From Escherichia coli (GTDB taxonomy: Bacteria > Pseudomonadota > Gammaproteobacteria > Enterobacterales > Enterobacteriaceae), in assembly GCF_050920415.1 (NCBI RefSeq), contig NZ_CP169309.1: DNA of 64,000 nucleotides; one strand, 5' to 3'. Below, in pieces: positions 1 to 38,250 of the stretch; position 1 is the stretch's first letter; each line of letters begins with the position of its first letter. Below the pieces are notes generated by a model, which saw only the letters and a list, made by a program, of their open reading frames with translations, was not told where the DNA came from and ran no database searches. The position numbers and the translations under genes are program-made.

Positions 1-1941
<1,941 letters not shown>

Positions 1942-1957
1942 GTTCACTAAAAAATAG

Positions 1958-1987
1958 AACGGGGCCAAATCGGTCCCGTTTTTTTTC
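1958..1987 (+). terminator. Rho-independent terminator after glgP
   Basis: GC-rich hairpin aacggggcc-aaat-cggtcccgtt followed by a T-run (1981-1987). Confidence 0.6.
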
Positions 1988-2070
1988 GCCTTTATTTCGG
2001 AGAAGTGTCCAGAGGGGCAAGGGGACTCGGGGGAGTATAATTTCGCCATTCAGAAAGAATGGAAAGAATA

Positions 2071-3576
2071 ATGCAAAACAAAAAATGGATTTTGACCTCG
2101 CTGGTAATGGCTTTTTTCGGCATCCCCATACTGGCGCAATTTTTGGCAGCGGTTATTGCCATGCTGGGGGCCGGGCTTGCCGCTATTCTTGAGGCTTGCA
2201 ATTTACTCTTTACGCCAACAATTTATCTTCTACTCAACGTCTTTATGCTGACGCTGGGGGCGATAATCCTATTTTTCTCTGGTCGCGTGTGGGCCGGTGA
2301 TAGCGCACCAGAAAACAGAGAAATAGCCGTCTGGCGGCAATGCTTTTTTCTTTTACCTGCACTGTTAACTCTGGTTGGCTGGATAATCACGCTACATCTG
2401 GCAGATTATCAATTTCGCCAAATGGGAGCAGGTTGGTTGGCAGAGCTTATGCTCCCCTGGCTGGGAGTTTTGTTAGTCTCATTAGTCGGAGGTGAGTTCT
2501 GGTGGATAGTCATTATACCCGTTGGTGCGCATATTAGTTTTTCACTGGGGTATGGCTGGCCGACCAGATATCCTTTAACCGGCACGTACGGGTTACGTTG
2601 CCGTAATTCCCTCCTGTTTATCCTTCTCATGCTTGGTTTTATCGCTGGTTATCAGGCTTATTTATATAAACAGATTAATCCCGGCGTCGGTGTGCGTGAA
2701 AATATTGATATCTGGGCCTGGCGACCCGATAAACTCAATAATCAACTGCCGCCACTGCGTGGTAAACCGCAAATTCAGTTTACACAAAACTGGCCGCGAC
2801 TCGATGGTGCTACAGCGGCGTACCCAATTTATGCTTCTGCCTTTTATGCGTTGAGCGTTATACCGGAAGATTTCCACACTTGGGAATATCTGGAGAACTC
2901 TCGTACCCCCGATGCATATAACAGGATTGTTAAAGGTGATGCCGATATTATTTTTGTGGCGCAACCTTCCGGTGGGCAGAAAAAACGCGCAGAGGAATCG
3001 GGCGTCACTTTGAACTACACTCCTTTCGCCCGTGAAGCATTCGTTTTCATCGTCAATGCGGATAACCCGGTTAATTCCCTGACTGACCAACAGGTGCGTG
3101 ACATCTTCAGTGGCGCAATTACCAACTGGCGCACGGTTGGCGGTAACGATCAGGAGATCCAGACCTGGCAACGCCCGGAAGACTCTGGCAGCCAGACAGT
3201 GATGCAATCGCAGGTCATGAAAAATGTCCGCATGATCTCGCCGCAGGAAACCGAAGTGGCAAGCATGATGGAGGGAATGATTAAAGTTGTTGCCGAATAC
3301 CGTAATACAAACAACTCAATAGGCTACACCTTCCGCTATTACGCAACACAAATGAACGCCGATAAAAATATAAAACTGCTAGCTATTAACGGTATTGCAC
3401 CGACTGCGGAAAATATTCGTAACGGCAAATATCCGTATATCGTCGATGCCTTTATGGTAACGCGGGAAAATACTACGTCAGAAACACAAAAACTGGTCGA
3501 ATGGTTTTTAACGCCGCAGGGGCAGAGTCTGGTGGAAGATGTGGGTTATGTACCGTTGCATACAACAATGAAATAA
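2071..3576 (+). CDS. Fusion protein: N-terminal polytopic membrane domain + C-terminal PstS-like (PBP_like_2) periplasmic binding domain; function unknown
   Basis: ORF 2059..3576 (505 aa); ATG at 2071 is preferred (ggaaag RBS 5 nt upstream, TATAAT at 2036-2041), 2059 is the alternative. N-terminal ~230 aa has several hydrophobic helices; C-terminal ~270 aa carries the motif ...NSLTDQQVRDIFSGAITNWRTVGG... typical of phosphate-binding-protein-like domains. Domain call from motif memory, not HMM search. Confidence 0.75.
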   Translation: MQNKKWILTSLVMAFFGIPILAQFLAAVIAMLGAGLAAILEACNLLFTPTIYLLLNVFMLTLGAIILFFSGRVWAGDSAPENREIAVWRQCFFLLPALLTLVGWIITLHLADYQFRQMGAGWLAELMLPWLGVLLVSLVGGEFWWIVIIPVGAHISFSLGYGWPTRYPLTGTYGLRCRNSLLFILLMLGFIAGYQAYLYKQINPGVGVRENIDIWAWRPDKLNNQLPPLRGKPQIQFTQNWPRLDGATAAYPIYASAFYALSVIPEDFHTWEYLENSRTPDAYNRIVKGDADIIFVAQPSGGQKKRAEESGVTLNYTPFAREAFVFIVNADNPVNSLTDQQVRDIFSGAITNWRTVGGNDQEIQTWQRPEDSGSQTVMQSQVMKNVRMISPQETEVASMMEGMIKVVAEYRNTNNSIGYTFRYYATQMNADKNIKLLAINGIAPTAENIRNGKYPYIVDAFMVTRENTTSETQKLVEWFLTPQGQSLVEDVGYVPLHTTMK

Positions 3577-3601
3577 CTTTTGAGAGAACGGAATCAGCGC
3601 G

Positions 3602-4594
3602 ATGAATAAATTCATAGGCGTTTTACTGCTAGGTGCGGTTTTACTGGCGGGATGTGTCGACCGGGAAGGGTACTATAACAGCGTCAGGGAAGAAGAAAGC
3701 CATGGACTGACGTCTCTGCGGGGGCAACCAGAATTACGTTACAGCGATGATTGGTCAAGATGGCCGAGAGTGTACGGCGCTACAGCCTTATACCCGCTGT
3801 ATGCTTCCGCGTATTATGAATTAGTACCCGAGCCAAAAGATAAGGATCGAACCTCGCTGGCCTGGCAGGCGTATGGTTTGCAACAAACCCGAACAGCTGA
3901 AGCCTACGATAGTCTGATCAAGGTTACCGCGACGGTTATTTTTGTTGCACAACCGTCGGAAGGACAGAAAAAACGTGCAGAAGAAGCAGGCGTTAAACTG
4001 AAATATACCGCTTTCGCCCGCGAAGCCTTTGTCTTTATCGTTGATATCAAAAACCCGGTTAATTCACTTAGCGAACAGCAGGTCAAAGACATTTTTAGCG
4101 GTAAAGTGAGTCGCTGGAATAAAGTGGGCGGCGGTGACGAAAGTATAAAAGTCTGGCAGCGGCCAGAAGATTCTGGAAGCCAAACGGTTATGAAGGGACT
4201 GGTTATGCAAGATACTCCAATGCTGCCAGCCAAAAAATCCACTGTTATCGATCTTATGGGCAGTTTAATTACCGAAGTCGCCGACTACCAAAACACAACA
4301 TCTTCCATTGGATACACCTTCCACTATTACGTCACGCGTATGAATGACAATATGCTCAAAATGCGCAAACAGATCAAACTGCTGGCTATAAATGGCGTTG
4401 CACCTACAGAGGAAAATATCCGTAACGGCACTTATCCGTACATAATTGATGCTTATATGGTGACGCACGAAAACCCTACGCTGGAAACGCAGAAATTCGT
4501 CGACTGGTTTTTAAGCCCGCAGGGACAGCAATTGGTAGAGGATGTGGGCTATGTGCCGATTCATGACGCATCATACGAATCATCAGTGCAATAA
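3602..4594 (+). CDS. Lipoprotein with PstS-like (PBP_like_2) binding domain; paralogue of the C-terminal domain of the upstream gene
   Basis: 330-aa ORF; N-terminal signal peptide with lipobox LLAGC; long colinear similarity to residues ~240-505 of the upstream protein (e.g. IFVAQPSEGQKKRAEEAGV / IFVAQPSGGQKKRAEESGV; WQRPEDSGSQTVM in both). Confidence 0.8.
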   Translation: MNKFIGVLLLGAVLLAGCVDREGYYNSVREEESHGLTSLRGQPELRYSDDWSRWPRVYGATALYPLYASAYYELVPEPKDKDRTSLAWQAYGLQQTRTAEAYDSLIKVTATVIFVAQPSEGQKKRAEEAGVKLKYTAFAREAFVFIVDIKNPVNSLSEQQVKDIFSGKVSRWNKVGGGDESIKVWQRPEDSGSQTVMKGLVMQDTPMLPAKKSTVIDLMGSLITEVADYQNTTSSIGYTFHYYVTRMNDNMLKMRKQIKLLAINGVAPTEENIRNGTYPYIIDAYMVTHENPTLETQKFVDWFLSPQGQQLVEDVGYVPIHDASYESSVQ

Positions 4595-5196
4595 TGATGA
4601 ATAAAATCAGACTTTATATTCCTCCGTTAATTCTTGGTTTTTTTATTGTGCCGTTGTTGGTGTGGCCGACGGTGGTTGCGCTGGCTGCTTCTGTTATCAC
4701 GCTGAGTTTTCTGGGAGAGATACTGTTCTCTATCCCGCTCATGATCAGGCATATTTCGCTTCTGCAATTACAACTATGGTTATCGGCTGAATATGCGCTT
4801 TTCTGCTGTGCAATGGTGGGCGTTGGTTGGCAATTTGCGCGCAGAACGCCACCTGAATCGAAAAGCAGACTGCATTGTTGGCTGGTATTTGCACCGGTTT
4901 ATTTCTGGTTGCTCCTGTGGAATATCATTTTCTATGTCGCGCCAGCGAATATTGCGTTGCTGGAGAATATGCGCAGTTTCTTTCTGACAGTTGTCTGGCT
5001 CCCACTAAATTTTTCACCATTTTGGTCCCAACCGTGGATTGACTTTGTCGGTCCAATAAGCGCACAGCTTGGTTTTGCGTTGGGATATTATTGCCAGTGG
5101 CGTAGCAAAAATAGAAGCCAGATACGGAAGTGGAGTGAGTGGGGAACGTGCCTGAGTTTTGTTACGTTGGGTATGATGGCGTGGGCTTTGCGGTAA
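4594..5196 (+). CDS. Polytopic membrane protein, homologous to the N-terminal membrane domain of the 2071..3576 protein
   Basis: 200-aa ORF; start overlaps the previous stop (TAATG); hydrophobic segments; local similarity to the upstream fusion protein (MMNKIRLYIPPLILGFF vs MQNKKWILTSLVMAFFG; VGPISAQLGFALGYYCQW vs VGAHISFSLGYGW). Confidence 0.7.
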   Translation: MMNKIRLYIPPLILGFFIVPLLVWPTVVALAASVITLSFLGEILFSIPLMIRHISLLQLQLWLSAEYALFCCAMVGVGWQFARRTPPESKSRLHCWLVFAPVYFWLLLWNIIFYVAPANIALLENMRSFFLTVVWLPLNFSPFWSQPWIDFVGPISAQLGFALGYYCQWRSKNRSQIRKWSEWGTCLSFVTLGMMAWALR

Positions 5197-5248
5197 TTCC
5201 CTGACTCAAAAAGTAGGTCAGATTGTTGACAAAGTGCGCTTTGTTCAT

Positions 5249-6626
<1,378 letters not shown>

Positions 6627-8741: not shown

Positions 8742-9584
<843 letters not shown>

Positions 9585-9600
9585 TTCCAGGGATTTATAA

Positions 9601-10359
9601 ATGAAACAAACACAACGTCACAACGGTATTATTGAACTGGTTAAACAGCAGGGTTATGTCAGCACCGAAGAACTGGTGGAACACTTCTCCGTCAGTCCGC
9701 AGACTATTCGTCGTGACCTCAACGAGCTGGCGGAGCAAAACCTGATCCTGCGTCACCATGGCGGCGCGGCACTGCCTTCCAGTTCAGTTAACACGCCGTG
9801 GCACGATCGTAAGGCCACCCAGACCGAAGAAAAAGAGCGTATTGCCCGCAAAGTGGCGGAGCAAATTCCTAACGGCTCGACGCTATTTATTGATATCGGC
9901 ACCACGCCGGAAGCGGTGGCGCACGCGCTGCTTAATCACAGCAATTTGCGCATTGTGACCAACAATCTCAACGTCGCTAACACGCTGATGGTAAAAGAAG
10001 ATTTTCGCATCATTCTTGCAGGTGGCGAATTACGCAGCCGCGATGGTGGGATCATTGGCGAAGCGACGCTCGATTTTATCTCCCAGTTCCGCCTTGATTT
10101 CGGGATTCTGGGGATCAGCGGCATCGATAGCGACGGCTCGCTGCTGGAGTTCGATTACCACGAAGTTCGCACCAAACGCGCTATTATTGAAAACTCGCGC
10201 CACGTTATGCTGGTTGTCGATCACTCGAAATTTGGCCGTAATGCGATGGTCAATATGGGCAGCATCAGCATGGTCGATGCCGTCTACACCGACGCCCCGC
10301 CACCAGCGAGCGTGATGCAGGTGCTGACAGACCATCATATTCAGCTGGAGCTGTGCTGA
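9601..10359 (+). CDS. glpR: DeoR-family glycerol-3-phosphate regulon repressor
   Basis: 252-aa ORF; N-terminal HTH (...VSTEELVEHFSVSPQTIRRDLNEL...). Confidence 0.95.
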   Translation: MKQTQRHNGIIELVKQQGYVSTEELVEHFSVSPQTIRRDLNELAEQNLILRHHGGAALPSSSVNTPWHDRKATQTEEKERIARKVAEQIPNGSTLFIDIGTTPEAVAHALLNHSNLRIVTNNLNVANTLMVKEDFRIILAGGELRSRDGGIIGEATLDFISQFRLDFGILGISGIDSDGSLLEFDYHEVRTKRAIIENSRHVMLVVDHSKFGRNAMVNMGSISMVDAVYTDAPPPASVMQVLTDHHIQLELC

Positions 10360-11929
10360 TCCTGCACGGCTTCCCACGTCAGACCAAAACGCGCCAGGTA
10401 TTTGCGTAGCCGATCCGCGTCGTTGACGCTGGCTTTGCCCTGGCGCGAAACATCAAAGAGTTCACGCCCGGCAGCGGAAAGCGATTTTGCCTGACGGCAG
10501 ATAGCGATAACGTGTTCCAGTTGCAGCCGATCAAAGAGGTCGATGTTTTCCGCTTCAGCGCCCAGTAGCTGTGTAAGCACGGAAGGGCGGCTCTCCTGCC
10601 AGTTATAGCGCAGACGGTTTATCTCATCTTCTACGGTTTCAAGGGTGATACGCCCACTATCGGCAAACGTCGCCATGCGTGTGACGCTGGCAGAAAGCTC
10701 GCGAAAGTTACCGCGCCATGTTGCCTGGGGAGATGTCGCAAAGGCCAGCCAGGCGCGCCTCGCTTCGGTGTTAAAACGCACGCTGTCGCCGGTGAGTGAG
10801 GCGTGGCGCTCCACTTCATAATCCAGGTTCGGTTCAATATCTTCCTGGCGCTGGCGTAGCCCCGGCAGGGTGAAGGTCCAGAGATTGATCCGCGCGTACA
10901 GGTCTTCGCGAAATTTGCCTTCGGCAACCAGCTGACGCAAATCGCGCACCGTTCCGGCGATCAGCTGAAAATCACTGCTCACCTGGCGATCGCTACCAAA
11001 CGGGTAAAAGGTTTTCTCTTCAATGGCTTTCAGCAACATCGCCTGTTCGTCTGCGCCCAGTTCGCCAATCTCATCAAGAAACAACATGCCACCGTTGGCG
11101 CTGCGTAATAATCCTTCACGAGATTCCCGCGCCCCGGTGAACGCGCCTTTCACATGACCAAACAGCGCGGACATGGCGGTATCGCCACGCAGAGTGGCGC
11201 AGTTCACTTCCACAAACTCGCCGCTAAACTGATGCCTCGCCTGTTTTAACTCGAAGATGCGTCGTGCCAGAAACGACTTTCCCGCACCGGTTGGGCCGTT
11301 GAGCAGGATCGGCGCGCGGGATCTAATCGCCACTTTTTCGATCTGCTCAATCATGCGGTTGAAATGGGAGTTACGCGTGGCAATGCCGGATTTGAGGAAA
11401 TCGAGGGTTTGCTGGCGTTCTTCGGCAAAGCGGCTGGCAATAGCGTTATAACGGCTTAAATCGAGATCGATAATCGTCACCGCACCAGGGCTGTTGGGCT
11501 GTTCTTTTTTACGCGGTGGCGAAGATTGTATTAACCTGGCGGGCAGGTAACGCGCTTCCGCCAGCAGAAACCAGCAAATCTGCGCGACGTGGGTACCGGT
11601 GGTGATGTGAATTAAATAGTCTTCTTTATCAGGTTCGAACGCGTAACCACGGGCGAAATCATGCAGGCAGGCGTAAACCTCCTCGAAATCCCACGGGTTA
11701 TGCAGTTCAATCTCAACGCTCACCACTTCTGTTTCTGGCGAAACATTGGCGATATCGCGTTTAAGCGTTTCAAACAGCGAGCGTCGTGCAACAATTCCAG
11801 TCGATTGATGACTAACGATTCTTGCTGACATAGACAGAGTGACGGACGCCATTTCGACCATCGCTGACTGCCGCGCCCGGCATAATCCAGTACGGTGCCG
11901 ACAAAGCCAAAAGCCACTGTTTTACGCAT
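10341..11929 (-). pseudogene. rtcR: Sigma54-dependent regulator RtcR, split by a frameshift in the N-terminal CARF region
   Basis: N-terminus MRKTVAFGFVGTVLDYAGRGS... is in a 69-aa ORF (11720..11929) that stops; the rest (AAA+ motif GPTGAGKSF, C-terminal HTH) is in a different frame (10341..11861). Frame switch near 11785-11800 at a short cgct direct repeat. Confidence 0.7.
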
Positions 11930-12063
11930 CTTAGATATCCTTATAAAAGACGATATTTCATTATCGGTAAATTGGCTTCGTGGAAAATCTCCGTTTACGG
12001 ACTGGAAGATTTTATCTATTTAAAAACAATGAATTAAAAAATTAATCTGCTTATTTAATTTTC

Positions 12064-12079
12064 TGGCACGACGGTTGCA
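12064..12079 (+). promoter_or_regulatory. Sigma54 (-24/-12) promoter of rtcBA
   Basis: TGGCAC-gacgg-TTGCA, an exact match to the TGGCAC-N5-TTGCA consensus, ~40 bp upstream of the rtcB start. Confidence 0.85.
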
Positions 12080-12117
12080 ATTATCAGGACAGCAAACAAC
12101 GAAAAGAGAAAAACAAA

Positions 12118-13344
12118 ATGAATTACGAATTACTGACCACTGAAAATGCCCCGGTAAAAATGTGGACCAAAGGCGTGCCGGTAGAGGCCGATGCGCGTCA
12201 GCAACTTATTAATACGGCGAAGATGCCGTTTATTTTCAAACATATTGCGGTAATGCCGGATGTACACCTGGGTAAAGGTTCCACCATTGGTAGCGTGATC
12301 CCAACCAAAGGAGCGATTATTCCGGCGGCGGTGGGGGTAGATATCGGTTGTGGAATGAACGCACTGCGAACTGCGTTAACGGCGGCTGACCTGCCTGAAA
12401 ACCTGGCGGAGCTGCGTCAGGCGATTGAAACTGCCGTGCCGCACGGACGTTCCAATAATCGTAGCCGTCGTGATAAAGGCGCATGGGAGCATCCGCCTGT
12501 TAACGTCGATGCTAAATGGGCCGAGCTGGAAGCTGGTTATCAGTGGTTAACGCAAAAATATCCGCGTTTCCTTAACACTAATAACTATAAACATCTGGGA
12601 ACGCTGGGAACGGGTAACCACTTTATTGAAATCTGCCTTGATGAGTCGGACCAGGTGTGGATTATGCTGCACTCCGGTTCACGCGGAATTGGTAATGCCA
12701 TCGGGACTTACTTTATCGATCTGGCACAAAAAGAGATGCAGGAAACGCTTGAAACGTTGCCATCGCGTGACCTGGCGTACTTTATGGAAGGTACGGAATA
12801 CTTTGATGATTACCTGAAAGCGGTGGCCTGGGCGCAGCTTTTTGCCAGCCTTAACCGCGATGCGATGATGGAAAATGTGGTAACGGCGTTGCAGAGCGTT
12901 ACGCAGAAAACGGTAAGACAGCCACAAACGCTGGCGATGGAAGAGATCAACTGTCACCACAACTATGTGCAAAAAGAACAGCACTTTGGCGAAGAGATCT
13001 ATGTGACGCGTAAAGGCGCGGTGTCTGCGCGTGCTGGTCAATATGGAATTATTCCCGGTTCGATGGGGGCGAAAAGCTTTATTGTCCGTGGGCTGGGAAA
13101 TGAAGAGTCGTTCTGTTCGTGCAGCCACGGTGCCGGGCGGGTAATGAGCCGTACTAAAGCGAAAAAACTGTTCAGCGTGGAAGATCAAATTCGTGCCACC
13201 GCGCATGTGGAATGCCGTAAAGATGCCGAAGTGATCGACGAAATCCCGATGGCGTATAAAGATATCGACGCGGTGATGGCGGCACAAAGCGATCTGGTGG
13301 AAGTTATCTACACCCTGCGTCAGGTGGTGTGTGTAAAAGGATAA
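12118..13344 (+). CDS. rtcB: RNA-splicing ligase RtcB
   Basis: 408-aa ORF; conserved RtcB metal-binding histidines/cysteine region. Confidence 0.95.
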   Translation: MNYELLTTENAPVKMWTKGVPVEADARQQLINTAKMPFIFKHIAVMPDVHLGKGSTIGSVIPTKGAIIPAAVGVDIGCGMNALRTALTAADLPENLAELRQAIETAVPHGRSNNRSRRDKGAWEHPPVNVDAKWAELEAGYQWLTQKYPRFLNTNNYKHLGTLGTGNHFIEICLDESDQVWIMLHSGSRGIGNAIGTYFIDLAQKEMQETLETLPSRDLAYFMEGTEYFDDYLKAVAWAQLFASLNRDAMMENVVTALQSVTQKTVRQPQTLAMEEINCHHNYVQKEQHFGEEIYVTRKGAVSARAGQYGIIPGSMGAKSFIVRGLGNEESFCSCSHGAGRVMSRTKAKKLFSVEDQIRATAHVECRKDAEVIDEIPMAYKDIDAVMAAQSDLVEVIYTLRQVVCVKG

Positions 13345-14364
<1,020 letters not shown>

Positions 14365-35772: not shown

Positions 35773-37059
35773 TTGATGCAACTTACCAACGAAGAACAAG
35801 CACAGATTGCTCGTATAAAAGAAAAAATCCCACGCATTGCCGCACTGGATCCTGAATGTAAGTTATTCGGTTCTGAAGGTTGGAAATATCAATGGCCGAA
35901 GCCTGCCAGCGAGGCGGAAATAGCTTCCTGGGAGAAAAAACATAGCGTCACTTTGCCACGGGAATATCGAATTTTTCTTCGCTATATCGCTAATGGCGGT
36001 CCGGCACATGCCTACGGTCTTGAATCTTTAGGCGGTACAGATATTTATGGCGATATAACAAAAGAAAGCCCTGTACCGCTTTATATGACGCAGCAGGATG
36101 TTGATGTGTTGAATGCTGGCCGTACAGAAGATGATGAAGAATATAGTTTTTTTGACGGCGCATTGACCATTCTCACCCTGGGATGTACTTATGATATTTG
36201 CCTGGTGGTGACGGGGCAGTATCGCGGAAGGTTAATGCTGACTGATGGTGATGAAGATTATCCGTTTGATTTTATATATGATAAAAATTTCCTCAACTGG
36301 TATGAACGCTGGCTGGACGATTTTATTGCTGGCATGAGTATGAAGGGTTTCGATAGAAGTTTGCCAGGAACGCAAATTCAACTGCGTGAGTGGTTTTTAA
36401 CTGAGAAAATCCCGGATTTACGTAGATCCATTTTATTCTCGCTATGCCGTTTTCCACAGATAGAACCCGAAACTTTTGCCCTTTGGGAACATGTTTGCCG
36501 CACAGAGAATGATAAAGAATTGTGTGAAGAGGCATTCACAAGATTACGCCAAAAAAAAGGTTCTTGTGCTGCAGATATTTTTCGACTCTATTTTACAATG
36601 CCAGGTGAATTACGTGATATTGCTATTAAAGATCTCCGTTTTGCCTGTAGAGATAGTGTGGTGAATATTGAGGATTATATTCATTCACTGTTAATAATAA
36701 TGCCTGAACTTGACGATGACACTCTATCCTCAGCTGTCTTTGCTATACGAGAAACAGAGTATAATAAATATGATACTTTTCTGCCGCTTCTCGAACGTAT
36801 CACTGATGACCGTCAGCAAACATTATTGTGGGCGATGAGTAAGGCGCCTGATTTCAATGAAAGCCGAGGATTCGTTGAGTTGGTATTACCGCTTTTTGCA
36901 TCATCAAAGATGGAGAATGTAAGGAAGGCTATTTTGTTGCTCATTGAAGTTAAAGATAATCGTATTCCACCATTGGTTGATGAAGCTGCAACTCGTTTCC
37001 CTGAACTGACCATTTTACGAGAAAACTACTATCTCAGGACGTGGGGACATAAGCCATAA
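35773..37059 (+). CDS. SMI1/KNR4 (SUKH-1)-like domain protein with C-terminal alpha-helical repeat region; immunity-protein-like; function unknown
   Basis: 428-aa ORF in a low-GC insert. N-terminal region has SUKH hallmarks: W..E.K....LP.EY..FL....NGG (ASEAEIASWEKKHSVTLPREYRIFLRYIANGG) and the distal FL.WYERWLDDFI motif. Domain call from motif memory, not HMM search. Confidence 0.7.
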   Translation: MMQLTNEEQAQIARIKEKIPRIAALDPECKLFGSEGWKYQWPKPASEAEIASWEKKHSVTLPREYRIFLRYIANGGPAHAYGLESLGGTDIYGDITKESPVPLYMTQQDVDVLNAGRTEDDEEYSFFDGALTILTLGCTYDICLVVTGQYRGRLMLTDGDEDYPFDFIYDKNFLNWYERWLDDFIAGMSMKGFDRSLPGTQIQLREWFLTEKIPDLRRSILFSLCRFPQIEPETFALWEHVCRTENDKELCEEAFTRLRQKKGSCAADIFRLYFTMPGELRDIAIKDLRFACRDSVVNIEDYIHSLLIIMPELDDDTLSSAVFAIRETEYNKYDTFLPLLERITDDRQQTLLWAMSKAPDFNESRGFVELVLPLFASSKMENVRKAILLLIEVKDNRIPPLVDEAATRFPELTILRENYYLRTWGHKP

Positions 37060-37096
37060 ATTAATGGTTCAGAAATGATCTAACGCGGAGAAAAAT

Positions 37097-37627
37097 ATGA
37101 TCAGGGAACATATTCAGCAAGCGATAAATAATAGGTTAGCATTTGATGGCCCATTCAATGTTGTTCCTGAACCTGCAAGCACTGCGTTTGATGGCCGGAT
37201 CCCGACATTGAAAAACGGTGTCTGGCAGAAGGCCAGCCCTATGTTGCAGGCGCGTTTTGCACATTGTGGACGTTGGTTAAGCGCTACACATGGAAGCTGG
37301 CTAAGTATAAGTGACATGGAAACGCTTTGGCAGGAACACATAGAAGATACGTTTCTTGATGAAATCAAAATGAATGCTGTAGCTTCAAGTGATAATTGGG
37401 ATAACCATGCCTTGGGACTATTTCGTTCTCATCGCCTGTCACTTTTTGCCGGTAGTGATTACAGTTATGAAATGGTTTTTCTCCTTTGGCTAGATAGTAC
37501 CGTTGAGCCAGAGGTCTGGGTTTATGACTGCAATGGGGAATCACGTTATAAAGATCTTAATGATTACCTGAATGCATATATTAATGATGACGTAAGCGCC
37601 TGTGAGCGCTCCTGGCGAGTAGAATGA
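37097..37627 (+). CDS. Hypothetical protein, possibly a second SUKH-like immunity-type protein
   Basis: 176-aa ORF 37 bp after the previous gene; C-terminus (EVWVYDCNGESRYKDLNDYLNAYIND) resembles SUKH C-terminal motifs; weak assignment. Confidence 0.6.
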   Translation: MIREHIQQAINNRLAFDGPFNVVPEPASTAFDGRIPTLKNGVWQKASPMLQARFAHCGRWLSATHGSWLSISDMETLWQEHIEDTFLDEIKMNAVASSDNWDNHALGLFRSHRLSLFAGSDYSYEMVFLLWLDSTVEPEVWVYDCNGESRYKDLNDYLNAYINDDVSACERSWRVE

Positions 37628-38250
37628 ATAGCCCCCCTTGCCCCTTTGATCCACAAACCGCACATTACCTCGGTACAGTGCAAATCCACTACAGCCCAAC
37701 CACCTTCAACGCTGCCGTTAAGCATTATACCTGTTACATTAAAAAGCGTTTTAAAGGGTTTAAATGGGGAATTGGAACCGCTGGCTTATTGGCTATATTG
37801 CCCATGATCCCACAATGGTTGAAACCTTCTCATGACTTTAAACTCAACGCAATCAGTACGTTAATTCTTCTATTAATGTTGCCACTCCTCTTATCAATGT
37901 TCCTGTTAATCAGCAGAAGAATTAACGATTTTAAGTCAAAAACAAAGCAAGTTACTTTTACGAAACCCGTGCGTTATGCGTTTTATTTCGAGGGGATTGT
38001 TTTTTATGAATCTCATCAGCAGGGCATACTTCGCTGGGAAGATTTGTATAGCATTGACTATGAAGAAGATTATTTGTGGCTTTTTCTGCATTTACCGAAG
38101 AGTTTTCCCAGAGAAGCGACGAAAGCGTTTTGCGATATTTTCATTCCCGCCAGCGCGATAAAAGCGCAGCCTGAACTGGATACGTTTTTTCGTGAAACAC
38201 GCCACTCGCTGGATTATCTGTTTGTCCCGTTTAATTCTGACAGAAAATAA
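37624..38250 (+). CDS. Hypothetical two-TM membrane protein (YcxB-like architecture?)
   Basis: 208-aa ORF; start overlaps the upstream stop (ATGA); two adjacent hydrophobic helices (WGIGTAGLLAILPMIPQWL, ISTLILLLMLPLLLSMFLLI) followed by a ~100-aa soluble domain. Confidence 0.6.
   Translation: MNSPPCPFDPQTAHYLGTVQIHYSPTTFNAAVKHYTCYIKKRFKGFKWGIGTAGLLAILPMIPQWLKPSHDFKLNAISTLILLLMLPLLLSMFLLISRRINDFKSKTKQVTFTKPVRYAFYFEGIVFYESHQQGILRWEDLYSIDYEEDYLWLFLHLPKSFPREATKAFCDIFIPASAIKAQPELDTFFRETRHSLDYLFVPFNSDRK

Follow-up and report, generated by a model that had tools for sequence, protein, structure and literature searches.

In Escherichia coli, 75 convergent overlapping pairs were counted among 663 overlapping adjacent gene pairs (Huvet and Stumpf, PMC4161906). 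According to previous studies, convergent overlaps classically originate by stop displacement (PMC2478687, PMC4161906), and convergent genes without a terminator between them form an established and named class, the overlapping 3' UTRs (PMC7154746, Figure 3b). Bidirectional terminators found by SEnd-seq, such as that of ynaJ-uspE, are intergenic elements with sharp, Rho-independent 3' ends. Rho termination of antisense or untranslated RNA has also been described, with antisense positions making up the largest class of Rho termination regions (51.5%; PMC7815308). The excludon denotes the reciprocal regulation of opposing or related genes.

The closest described counterpart of the locus studied here is the rtcR/glpR pair of E. 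coli K-12 MG1655, in which rtcR (b3422, 3558268..3559866) and glpR (b3423, 3559848..3560605) are annotated with a 19-nt overlap. The same genes, in the same orientation, with the same overlap and the same stop positions, were found in the stretch of E. coli DNA analysed here (64,000 nt, contig NZ_CP169309.1; hereafter the window). The two loci differ in the gene that is broken: in MG1655 it is glpR, an annotated pseudogene with a 1-nt deletion at the window-equivalent position ~9751, whereas the window has an intact glpR and a frameshifting deletion of 10 bp in rtcR. Among the convergent pairs of the window (n = 8), glpR/rtcR alone overlaps, and the other seven are spaced by 28-229 nt.

In its short length, its third-position phase and the extension of a 3' end into the neighbour, the glpR/rtcR overlap resembles the prokaryotic convergent overlaps that arise by stop-codon displacement. 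Nothing notable sets it apart from this class, of which it is a typical short member. Once convergent genes abut without a spacer, a short run-on is expected. The overlap is thus already known from the reference annotation and is ordinary. In our reading, it is probably a plain convergent stop-codon run-on whose transcripts are ended by Rho, with a physiological consequence that is negligible or nil.

Gene identities and coding content of the overlap

The features of the junction and of the two genes are listed in Table 1.

Table 1. Features at and around the glpR/rtcR junction, in window coordinates.
Feature	Position	Strand	Description
glpR CDS	9601..10359	+	ORF of 252 aa, C-terminus ...HHIQLELC followed by the stop TGA at 10357-10359; PGAP CDS WP_000815098.1 at the same coordinates
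rtcR frame as annotated	10341..11861	-	ORF of 506 aa from an internal ATG, C-terminus ...TWEAVQDQHSSS followed by the stop; PGAP CDS WP_001355002.1
Tail-to-tail overlap	10341..10359	both	19 nt; each stop codon lies inside the frame of the partner
N-terminal rtcR fragment	11720..11929	-	ORF of 69 aa, RtcR profile positions 1-58; original ATG at 11929
Deletion in rtcR	~11781..11784	-	loss of 10 bp (CGCCCGCTCA on the rtcR strand) compared with K-12 and close relatives; frameshift after codon 49
Junction hairpin	10347..10373	both	10 bp, GGAGCUGUGC / GCACGGCUUC; the 7-nt loop contains the glpR stop codon
Weak terminator-like hairpin	10528..10542	+	stem of 5 bp with tail ATGTTTTCCG, lying 170 nt beyond the glpR stop; chance level
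Weak terminator-like hairpin	9968..9988	-	stem of 7 bp (3 GC) within glpR, ~350 nt beyond the rtcR stop; chance level
Putative untranslated 3' extension of glpR-strand RNA	10360..10693	+	antisense to the 3' coding region of rtcR; mapped over from K-12 Rho data

The identities of glpR and rtcR are firm, and both proteins exceed the curated cutoffs of their families. In profile searches, GlpR matched NCBIfam NF008154 over residues 1-252 of 252 (553 bits, cutoff 331), and residues 5-501 of RtcR, the sigma-54-dependent activator of rtcBA, matched profile positions 29-529 of 530 in NF038308 (785 bits, cutoff 650). Both partners are conserved protein-coding genes on opposite strands with orthologues in other genera, and the PGAP coordinates of both genes match in strain MFDS1022581, which is 100% identical across 9601-11929. 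Taken alone, rtcR of the window is typically 91-93% identical to rtcR of other E. coli.

The preliminary description of this DNA had placed the glpR stop 19 nt within the 3' end of rtcR, and the ORF coordinates confirmed this. Read along glpR, the overlap is (AT)T CAG CTG GAG CTG TGC TGA, encoding Q L E L C and the stop; read along rtcR, it is (GA)T CAG CAC AGC TCC AGC TGA, encoding Q H S S S and the stop. The stop codon of rtcR, the reverse complement of 10341-10343, arises from a T|CA that spans the Ile-Gln codons of glpR and is read as TGA on the opposite strand. The three antisense frames would run on into glpR for 19, 95 and 330 nt, and rtcR uses the shortest. Throughout the overlap, each third codon position of one gene lies opposite a third position of the other, so the mutual constraint is small and both genes can still change synonymously. 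Indeed, all substitutions observed within the overlap, in K-12 and in the other genera compared, are synonymous in both frames, because the third positions coincide; the single site that differs between the window and K-12 is one of them.

The two C-termini that meet at the junction are not equally conserved. The C-terminal QLELC of GlpR was conserved in all genera examined. The RtcR family profile, in contrast, ends at residue 501 of the 506-aa ORF. When RtcR proteins of Enterobacteriaceae, Pseudomonas, Iodobacter, Accumulibacter and Desulfobacterota are aligned (18 homologues), the conserved part ends at ...RLRKYLxxFxLxWxxφ, where φ is a hydrophobic residue (that is, W-x-x-[VIL]), and is followed by an unrelated tail of 2-10 residues. 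The conserved RtcR body thus ends about 6-7 codons before the stop, and the overlapped rtcR codons (QHSSS and the stop) belong to a non-conserved tail.

These observations suggest how the overlap may have formed. The conserved body of RtcR would end at about ...FGLTWEAV, with rtcR having no stop of its own before glpR is reached. Its frame would then run on along the strand opposite the final glpR codons until it met a stop. The conserved QLELC of GlpR would fix the sequence, and the RtcR tail QHSSS would be whatever the opposite strand happens to spell.

That one of the two stop codons is simply wrong, so that glpR and rtcR do not truly overlap, is hardly conceivable. Long convergent overlaps are often misannotated 3' extensions (PMC2478687), but the overlap here is only 19 nt long, stop codons are not chosen by a gene caller, and GlpR fits its family profile to the last residue. 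Of 5426 complete E. coli genomes, 5424-5425 have the identical junction, which is also present in other genera, and this conservation effectively rules out an annotation or sequencing artefact.

Conservation of the junction and broken alleles

The junction was compared in four enterobacterial genera, namely Escherichia, Klebsiella, Intestinirhabdus and Superficieibacter. An overlap of 19 nt is present in E. whittamii, E. albertii, two further Escherichia species and K. oxytoca; it measures 35 nt in Intestinirhabdus alba, in which a 7-nt deletion moves the rtcR frame, and 4 nt in Superficieibacter electus. Across the genera compared, the position of the glpR stop is constant while the end of rtcR moves. 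The spacer-free abutment is shared by all four genera, which indicates that the abutment is old. Selection for the overlap would lead to such retention as well, and in this respect the retention speaks against the run-on model; it is equally a neutral expectation, since the insertion of a spacer needs a specific event.

The rtcR gene of the window is a frameshifted allele, which the preliminary description had missed; the 3' end of its frame is intact. Placement of the 10-bp deletion is ambiguous owing to a 3-nt CGC microhomology at its flanks. The frameshift cuts a 69-aa ORF from the 506-aa ORF and affects the first ~50 residues of RtcR. Full-length rtcR of close relatives starts at the ATG equivalent to 11929; one of these relatives, strain Z0117EC0005, shares the arrangement and encodes RtcR at its full length of 532 aa, and the genome matches ranked 2-10 are 10 bases longer than the window sequence. 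Among the 5426 complete E. coli genomes, only MFDS1022581 carries the deletion allele at an identity of at least 99%. The region 9601-11929 is 90-95% identical to most complete E. coli genomes, and only 18 genomes reach at least 95%; the rtcR allele of the window therefore belongs to a minority, divergent haplotype. If translation of this allele ends early, Rho polarity may lower the rtcR transcription that reaches the junction in the window strain.

Larger lesions of rtcR also occur. In ~570-590 of 5424 complete E. coli genomes (~10%), rtcR is mostly lost and a 3' remnant remains beside an intact glpR. In E. coli SCPM-O-B-8794 (2844-3111), for example, a deletion of ~3.8 kb joins the window-equivalent positions 10433 and 14225 (10434-14224 are gone), so that rtcB is lost entirely and rtcR and rtcA are lost for the most part; what is left is a 93-nt piece of the 3' end of rtcR beside glpR and a 140-nt piece of the 3' end of rtcA beside malT. 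The rtcR remnants are of at least two sizes (~365 and ~296 nt matched), suggesting more than one deletion event.

Two further features were noted elsewhere in the window. Between glgP and glpD (755-6405), a gene for a PstS-family substrate-binding protein is followed by a second copy broken by a frameshifted IS3-family transposase, and after this interrupted copy comes an IS621 (IS110-like) transposase, according to the PGAP annotation of the identical strain. Between envZ and pckA (35776-38250), three extra genes encode an SMI1/KNR4-family protein and two hypothetical proteins. We take envZ and pckA to be adjacent in K-12, so that this segment looks like a small strain-variable insertion.

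Terminator signals and transcript ends

It had also been claimed that no intergenic terminator separates the two genes, and structurally this is right: glpR and rtcR share their ends, and there is no intergenic DNA. The lack of a spacer leaves no place for an intrinsic terminator between them, and any mRNA that contains either stop codon already extends inside the other gene. A consensus scan of 9400-12200 for intrinsic terminators returned three weak sites, compared with 3.7 ± 2.0 in shuffled sequence, and none of them lies at the junction. Over the same interval, a consensus scan detected no sigma-70-like promoter for an independent antisense RNA on either strand, and a search of both strands against Rfam families gave no match at E ≤ 1.

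At the junction itself lies the hairpin at 10347-10373, which can form in both RNAs and in this respect is like the bidirectional terminators of SEnd-seq. Unlike those elements, it lies within coding sequence, is not conserved, and sits on a glpR strand that is Rho-sensitive. No U-tract follows it on either strand, the next letters being CCACGUCAG (+) and UCCAGCUGAAUAU (-). Its stability does not differ significantly from that of shuffled sequence (z = -1.0 and -0.6), and covariation is absent: paired cells make up 84.2%, versus 83.5% in shuffles, and the observed values were reached by 186 of 500 and 139 of 500 shuffles. K. oxytoca, Intestinirhabdus and Superficieibacter all have a broken 3' arm. 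The hairpin is probably incidental, and as a conserved element it was rejected on its fold z-scores and its lack of covariation.

This bears on the reading in which the hairpin pauses RNA polymerase arriving from either side and head-on collisions end both transcripts at the overlap, as has been put forward for pairs such as ynaJ-uspE, a reading that we consider quite unlikely here. The hairpin does form on both strands exactly at the junction. Both regulator genes are weakly expressed. The collision mechanism has been described for hundreds of convergent E. coli genes, without a canonical U-tract or Rho (bioRxiv 10.1101/2022.10.23.513370), but the same study reports a low termination efficiency for weakly expressed pairs. 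The fold is no different from shuffles, does not covary and has a broken arm in three genera, all of which counts against such a role. The Term-seq tables list no 3' end near the junction under three growth conditions, and the glpR-strand RNA is bicyclomycin-sensitive well downstream of it.

In the curated Term-seq tables of PMC7815308 (LB at OD 0.4, LB at OD 2.0, and M63), no 3' end is listed on either strand of K-12 between 3559400 and 3560599, where low expression could hide ends; the SMRT-Cappable-seq supplements mention neither glpR nor rtcR. A signal was found in the DirectRNA-seq data for K-12 with and without bicyclomycin, which map a region of Rho termination to 3559514 of the minus strand, that is, the glpR strand, antisense to rtcR (Adams et al. 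2021, PMC7815308). The Rho score of this region is 8.89 (p = 2.7e-27; Supplementary file 2 of PMC7815308), computed from 800-nt windows that make the position approximate. Read counts upstream/downstream were 154/29 in untreated cells and 153/256 with bicyclomycin (PMC7815308), a signal that does not separate read-through from glpR from an independent antisense RNA. By coordinate mapping, 3559514 lies 334 nt past the glpR stop and corresponds to window position 10693. The glpR frame ends at 10359, so that the RNA upstream of the Rho region is untranslated over this distance.

In this bicyclomycin-sensitive read-through inside rtcR, the glpR strand of K-12 is like other antisense or untranslated RNAs that are terminated by Rho. 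It differs from described Rho terminators in having no clear C-rich, G-poor rut element, and the likeness holds for K-12 and for one strand. The C:G profiles downstream of either stop show no clear C-rich, G-poor rut site; past the glpR stop, the C:G ratio is at most 1.24 in the first 78-100 nt and 0.8-1.2 from there to +540, a mildly C-rich composition. The Rho data come from MG1655, whose frameshifted glpR stops translation early, and Rho might act otherwise in a glpR+ strain. The frameshift thus makes MG1655 transcript-end data harder to apply to the glpR-rtcR locus.

The preliminary description had further stated that the two transcripts must overlap at their 3' ends. For the glpR-strand RNA this stood, in K-12 and over far more than the 19 nt; for the rtcR strand it remains a deduction. 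Under the run-on model, RNA past each stop codon would be untranslated and antisense to the neighbour, and Rho would end transcription there. The glpEGR transcripts would accordingly run some hundreds of nt antisense to rtcR before being ended by Rho, which in the K-12 data occurs ~330 nt into rtcR, and rtcR transcripts inside glpR would meet an equivalent, Rho-ended fate. Since RNA past each stop is antisense to the neighbour, full-length glpR and rtcR mRNAs would be complementary at their 3' ends. In the absence of a terminator between the genes and in a glpR-strand RNA that is antisense over hundreds of nt, the pair is like the overlapping 3' UTR class (PMC7154746).

Possible regulatory roles and significance

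Transcriptional interference or antisense pairing, both raised in the preliminary description, would be permitted by the anatomy of the junction, as possibilities that none of the present results favours. A stronger version is an excludon-like arrangement, in which the missing spacer has been selected and glpEGR and rtcR lower each other through interference or through RNase III cleavage of the duplex. We regard this as quite improbable, and equally so the corollary that the arrangement would link glycerol metabolism to the control of RNA repair. To our knowledge, there is no functional link between the glycerol-3-phosphate regulon's repressor and the activator of the RNA-repair operon.

Several observations are consistent with an excludon-like arrangement. 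At least four genera of enterobacteria have retained the junction without a spacer, in K-12 the RNA of the glpR strand spans ~330 nt or more of the 3' end of rtcR, and the architecture fits Figure 3b of PMC7154746. However, an excludon implies reciprocal regulation of opposing or related genes, and glpR/rtcR would be assigned to it on architecture. The literature that names both glpR and rtcR does so without discussing the overlap, and no data on inverse expression were found in it. The overlapped rtcR codons form the non-conserved tail, whose length varies between genera, and natural strains can do without the rtc locus, as the genomes with an rtcR remnant and the frameshifted allele of the window show, while glpR and the junction persist. 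The retained abutment, as noted above, is expected under neutrality too.

A related reading in which the junction is likewise selected appears very improbable: Rho-trimmed read-through of a constitutive glpEGR would determine how much rtcR mRNA is present at baseline, by way of collisions or RNase III. If this were true, weakened Rho activity or translation would shift RtcR and prime the RNA-repair operon.

The run-on model, with transcripts probably ended by Rho, remains the preferred explanation. If the overlap did couple glp regulation to Rtc RNA repair, it would be a modest, locus-specific regulatory finding. In itself the overlap matters little: the reference annotation of E. coli K-12 has shown it for decades, and the class of short convergent overlaps to which it belongs is well described. 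Its one general lesson is that, where convergent genes abut directly, Rho rather than an intrinsic terminator would be what ends each mRNA within the partner gene.
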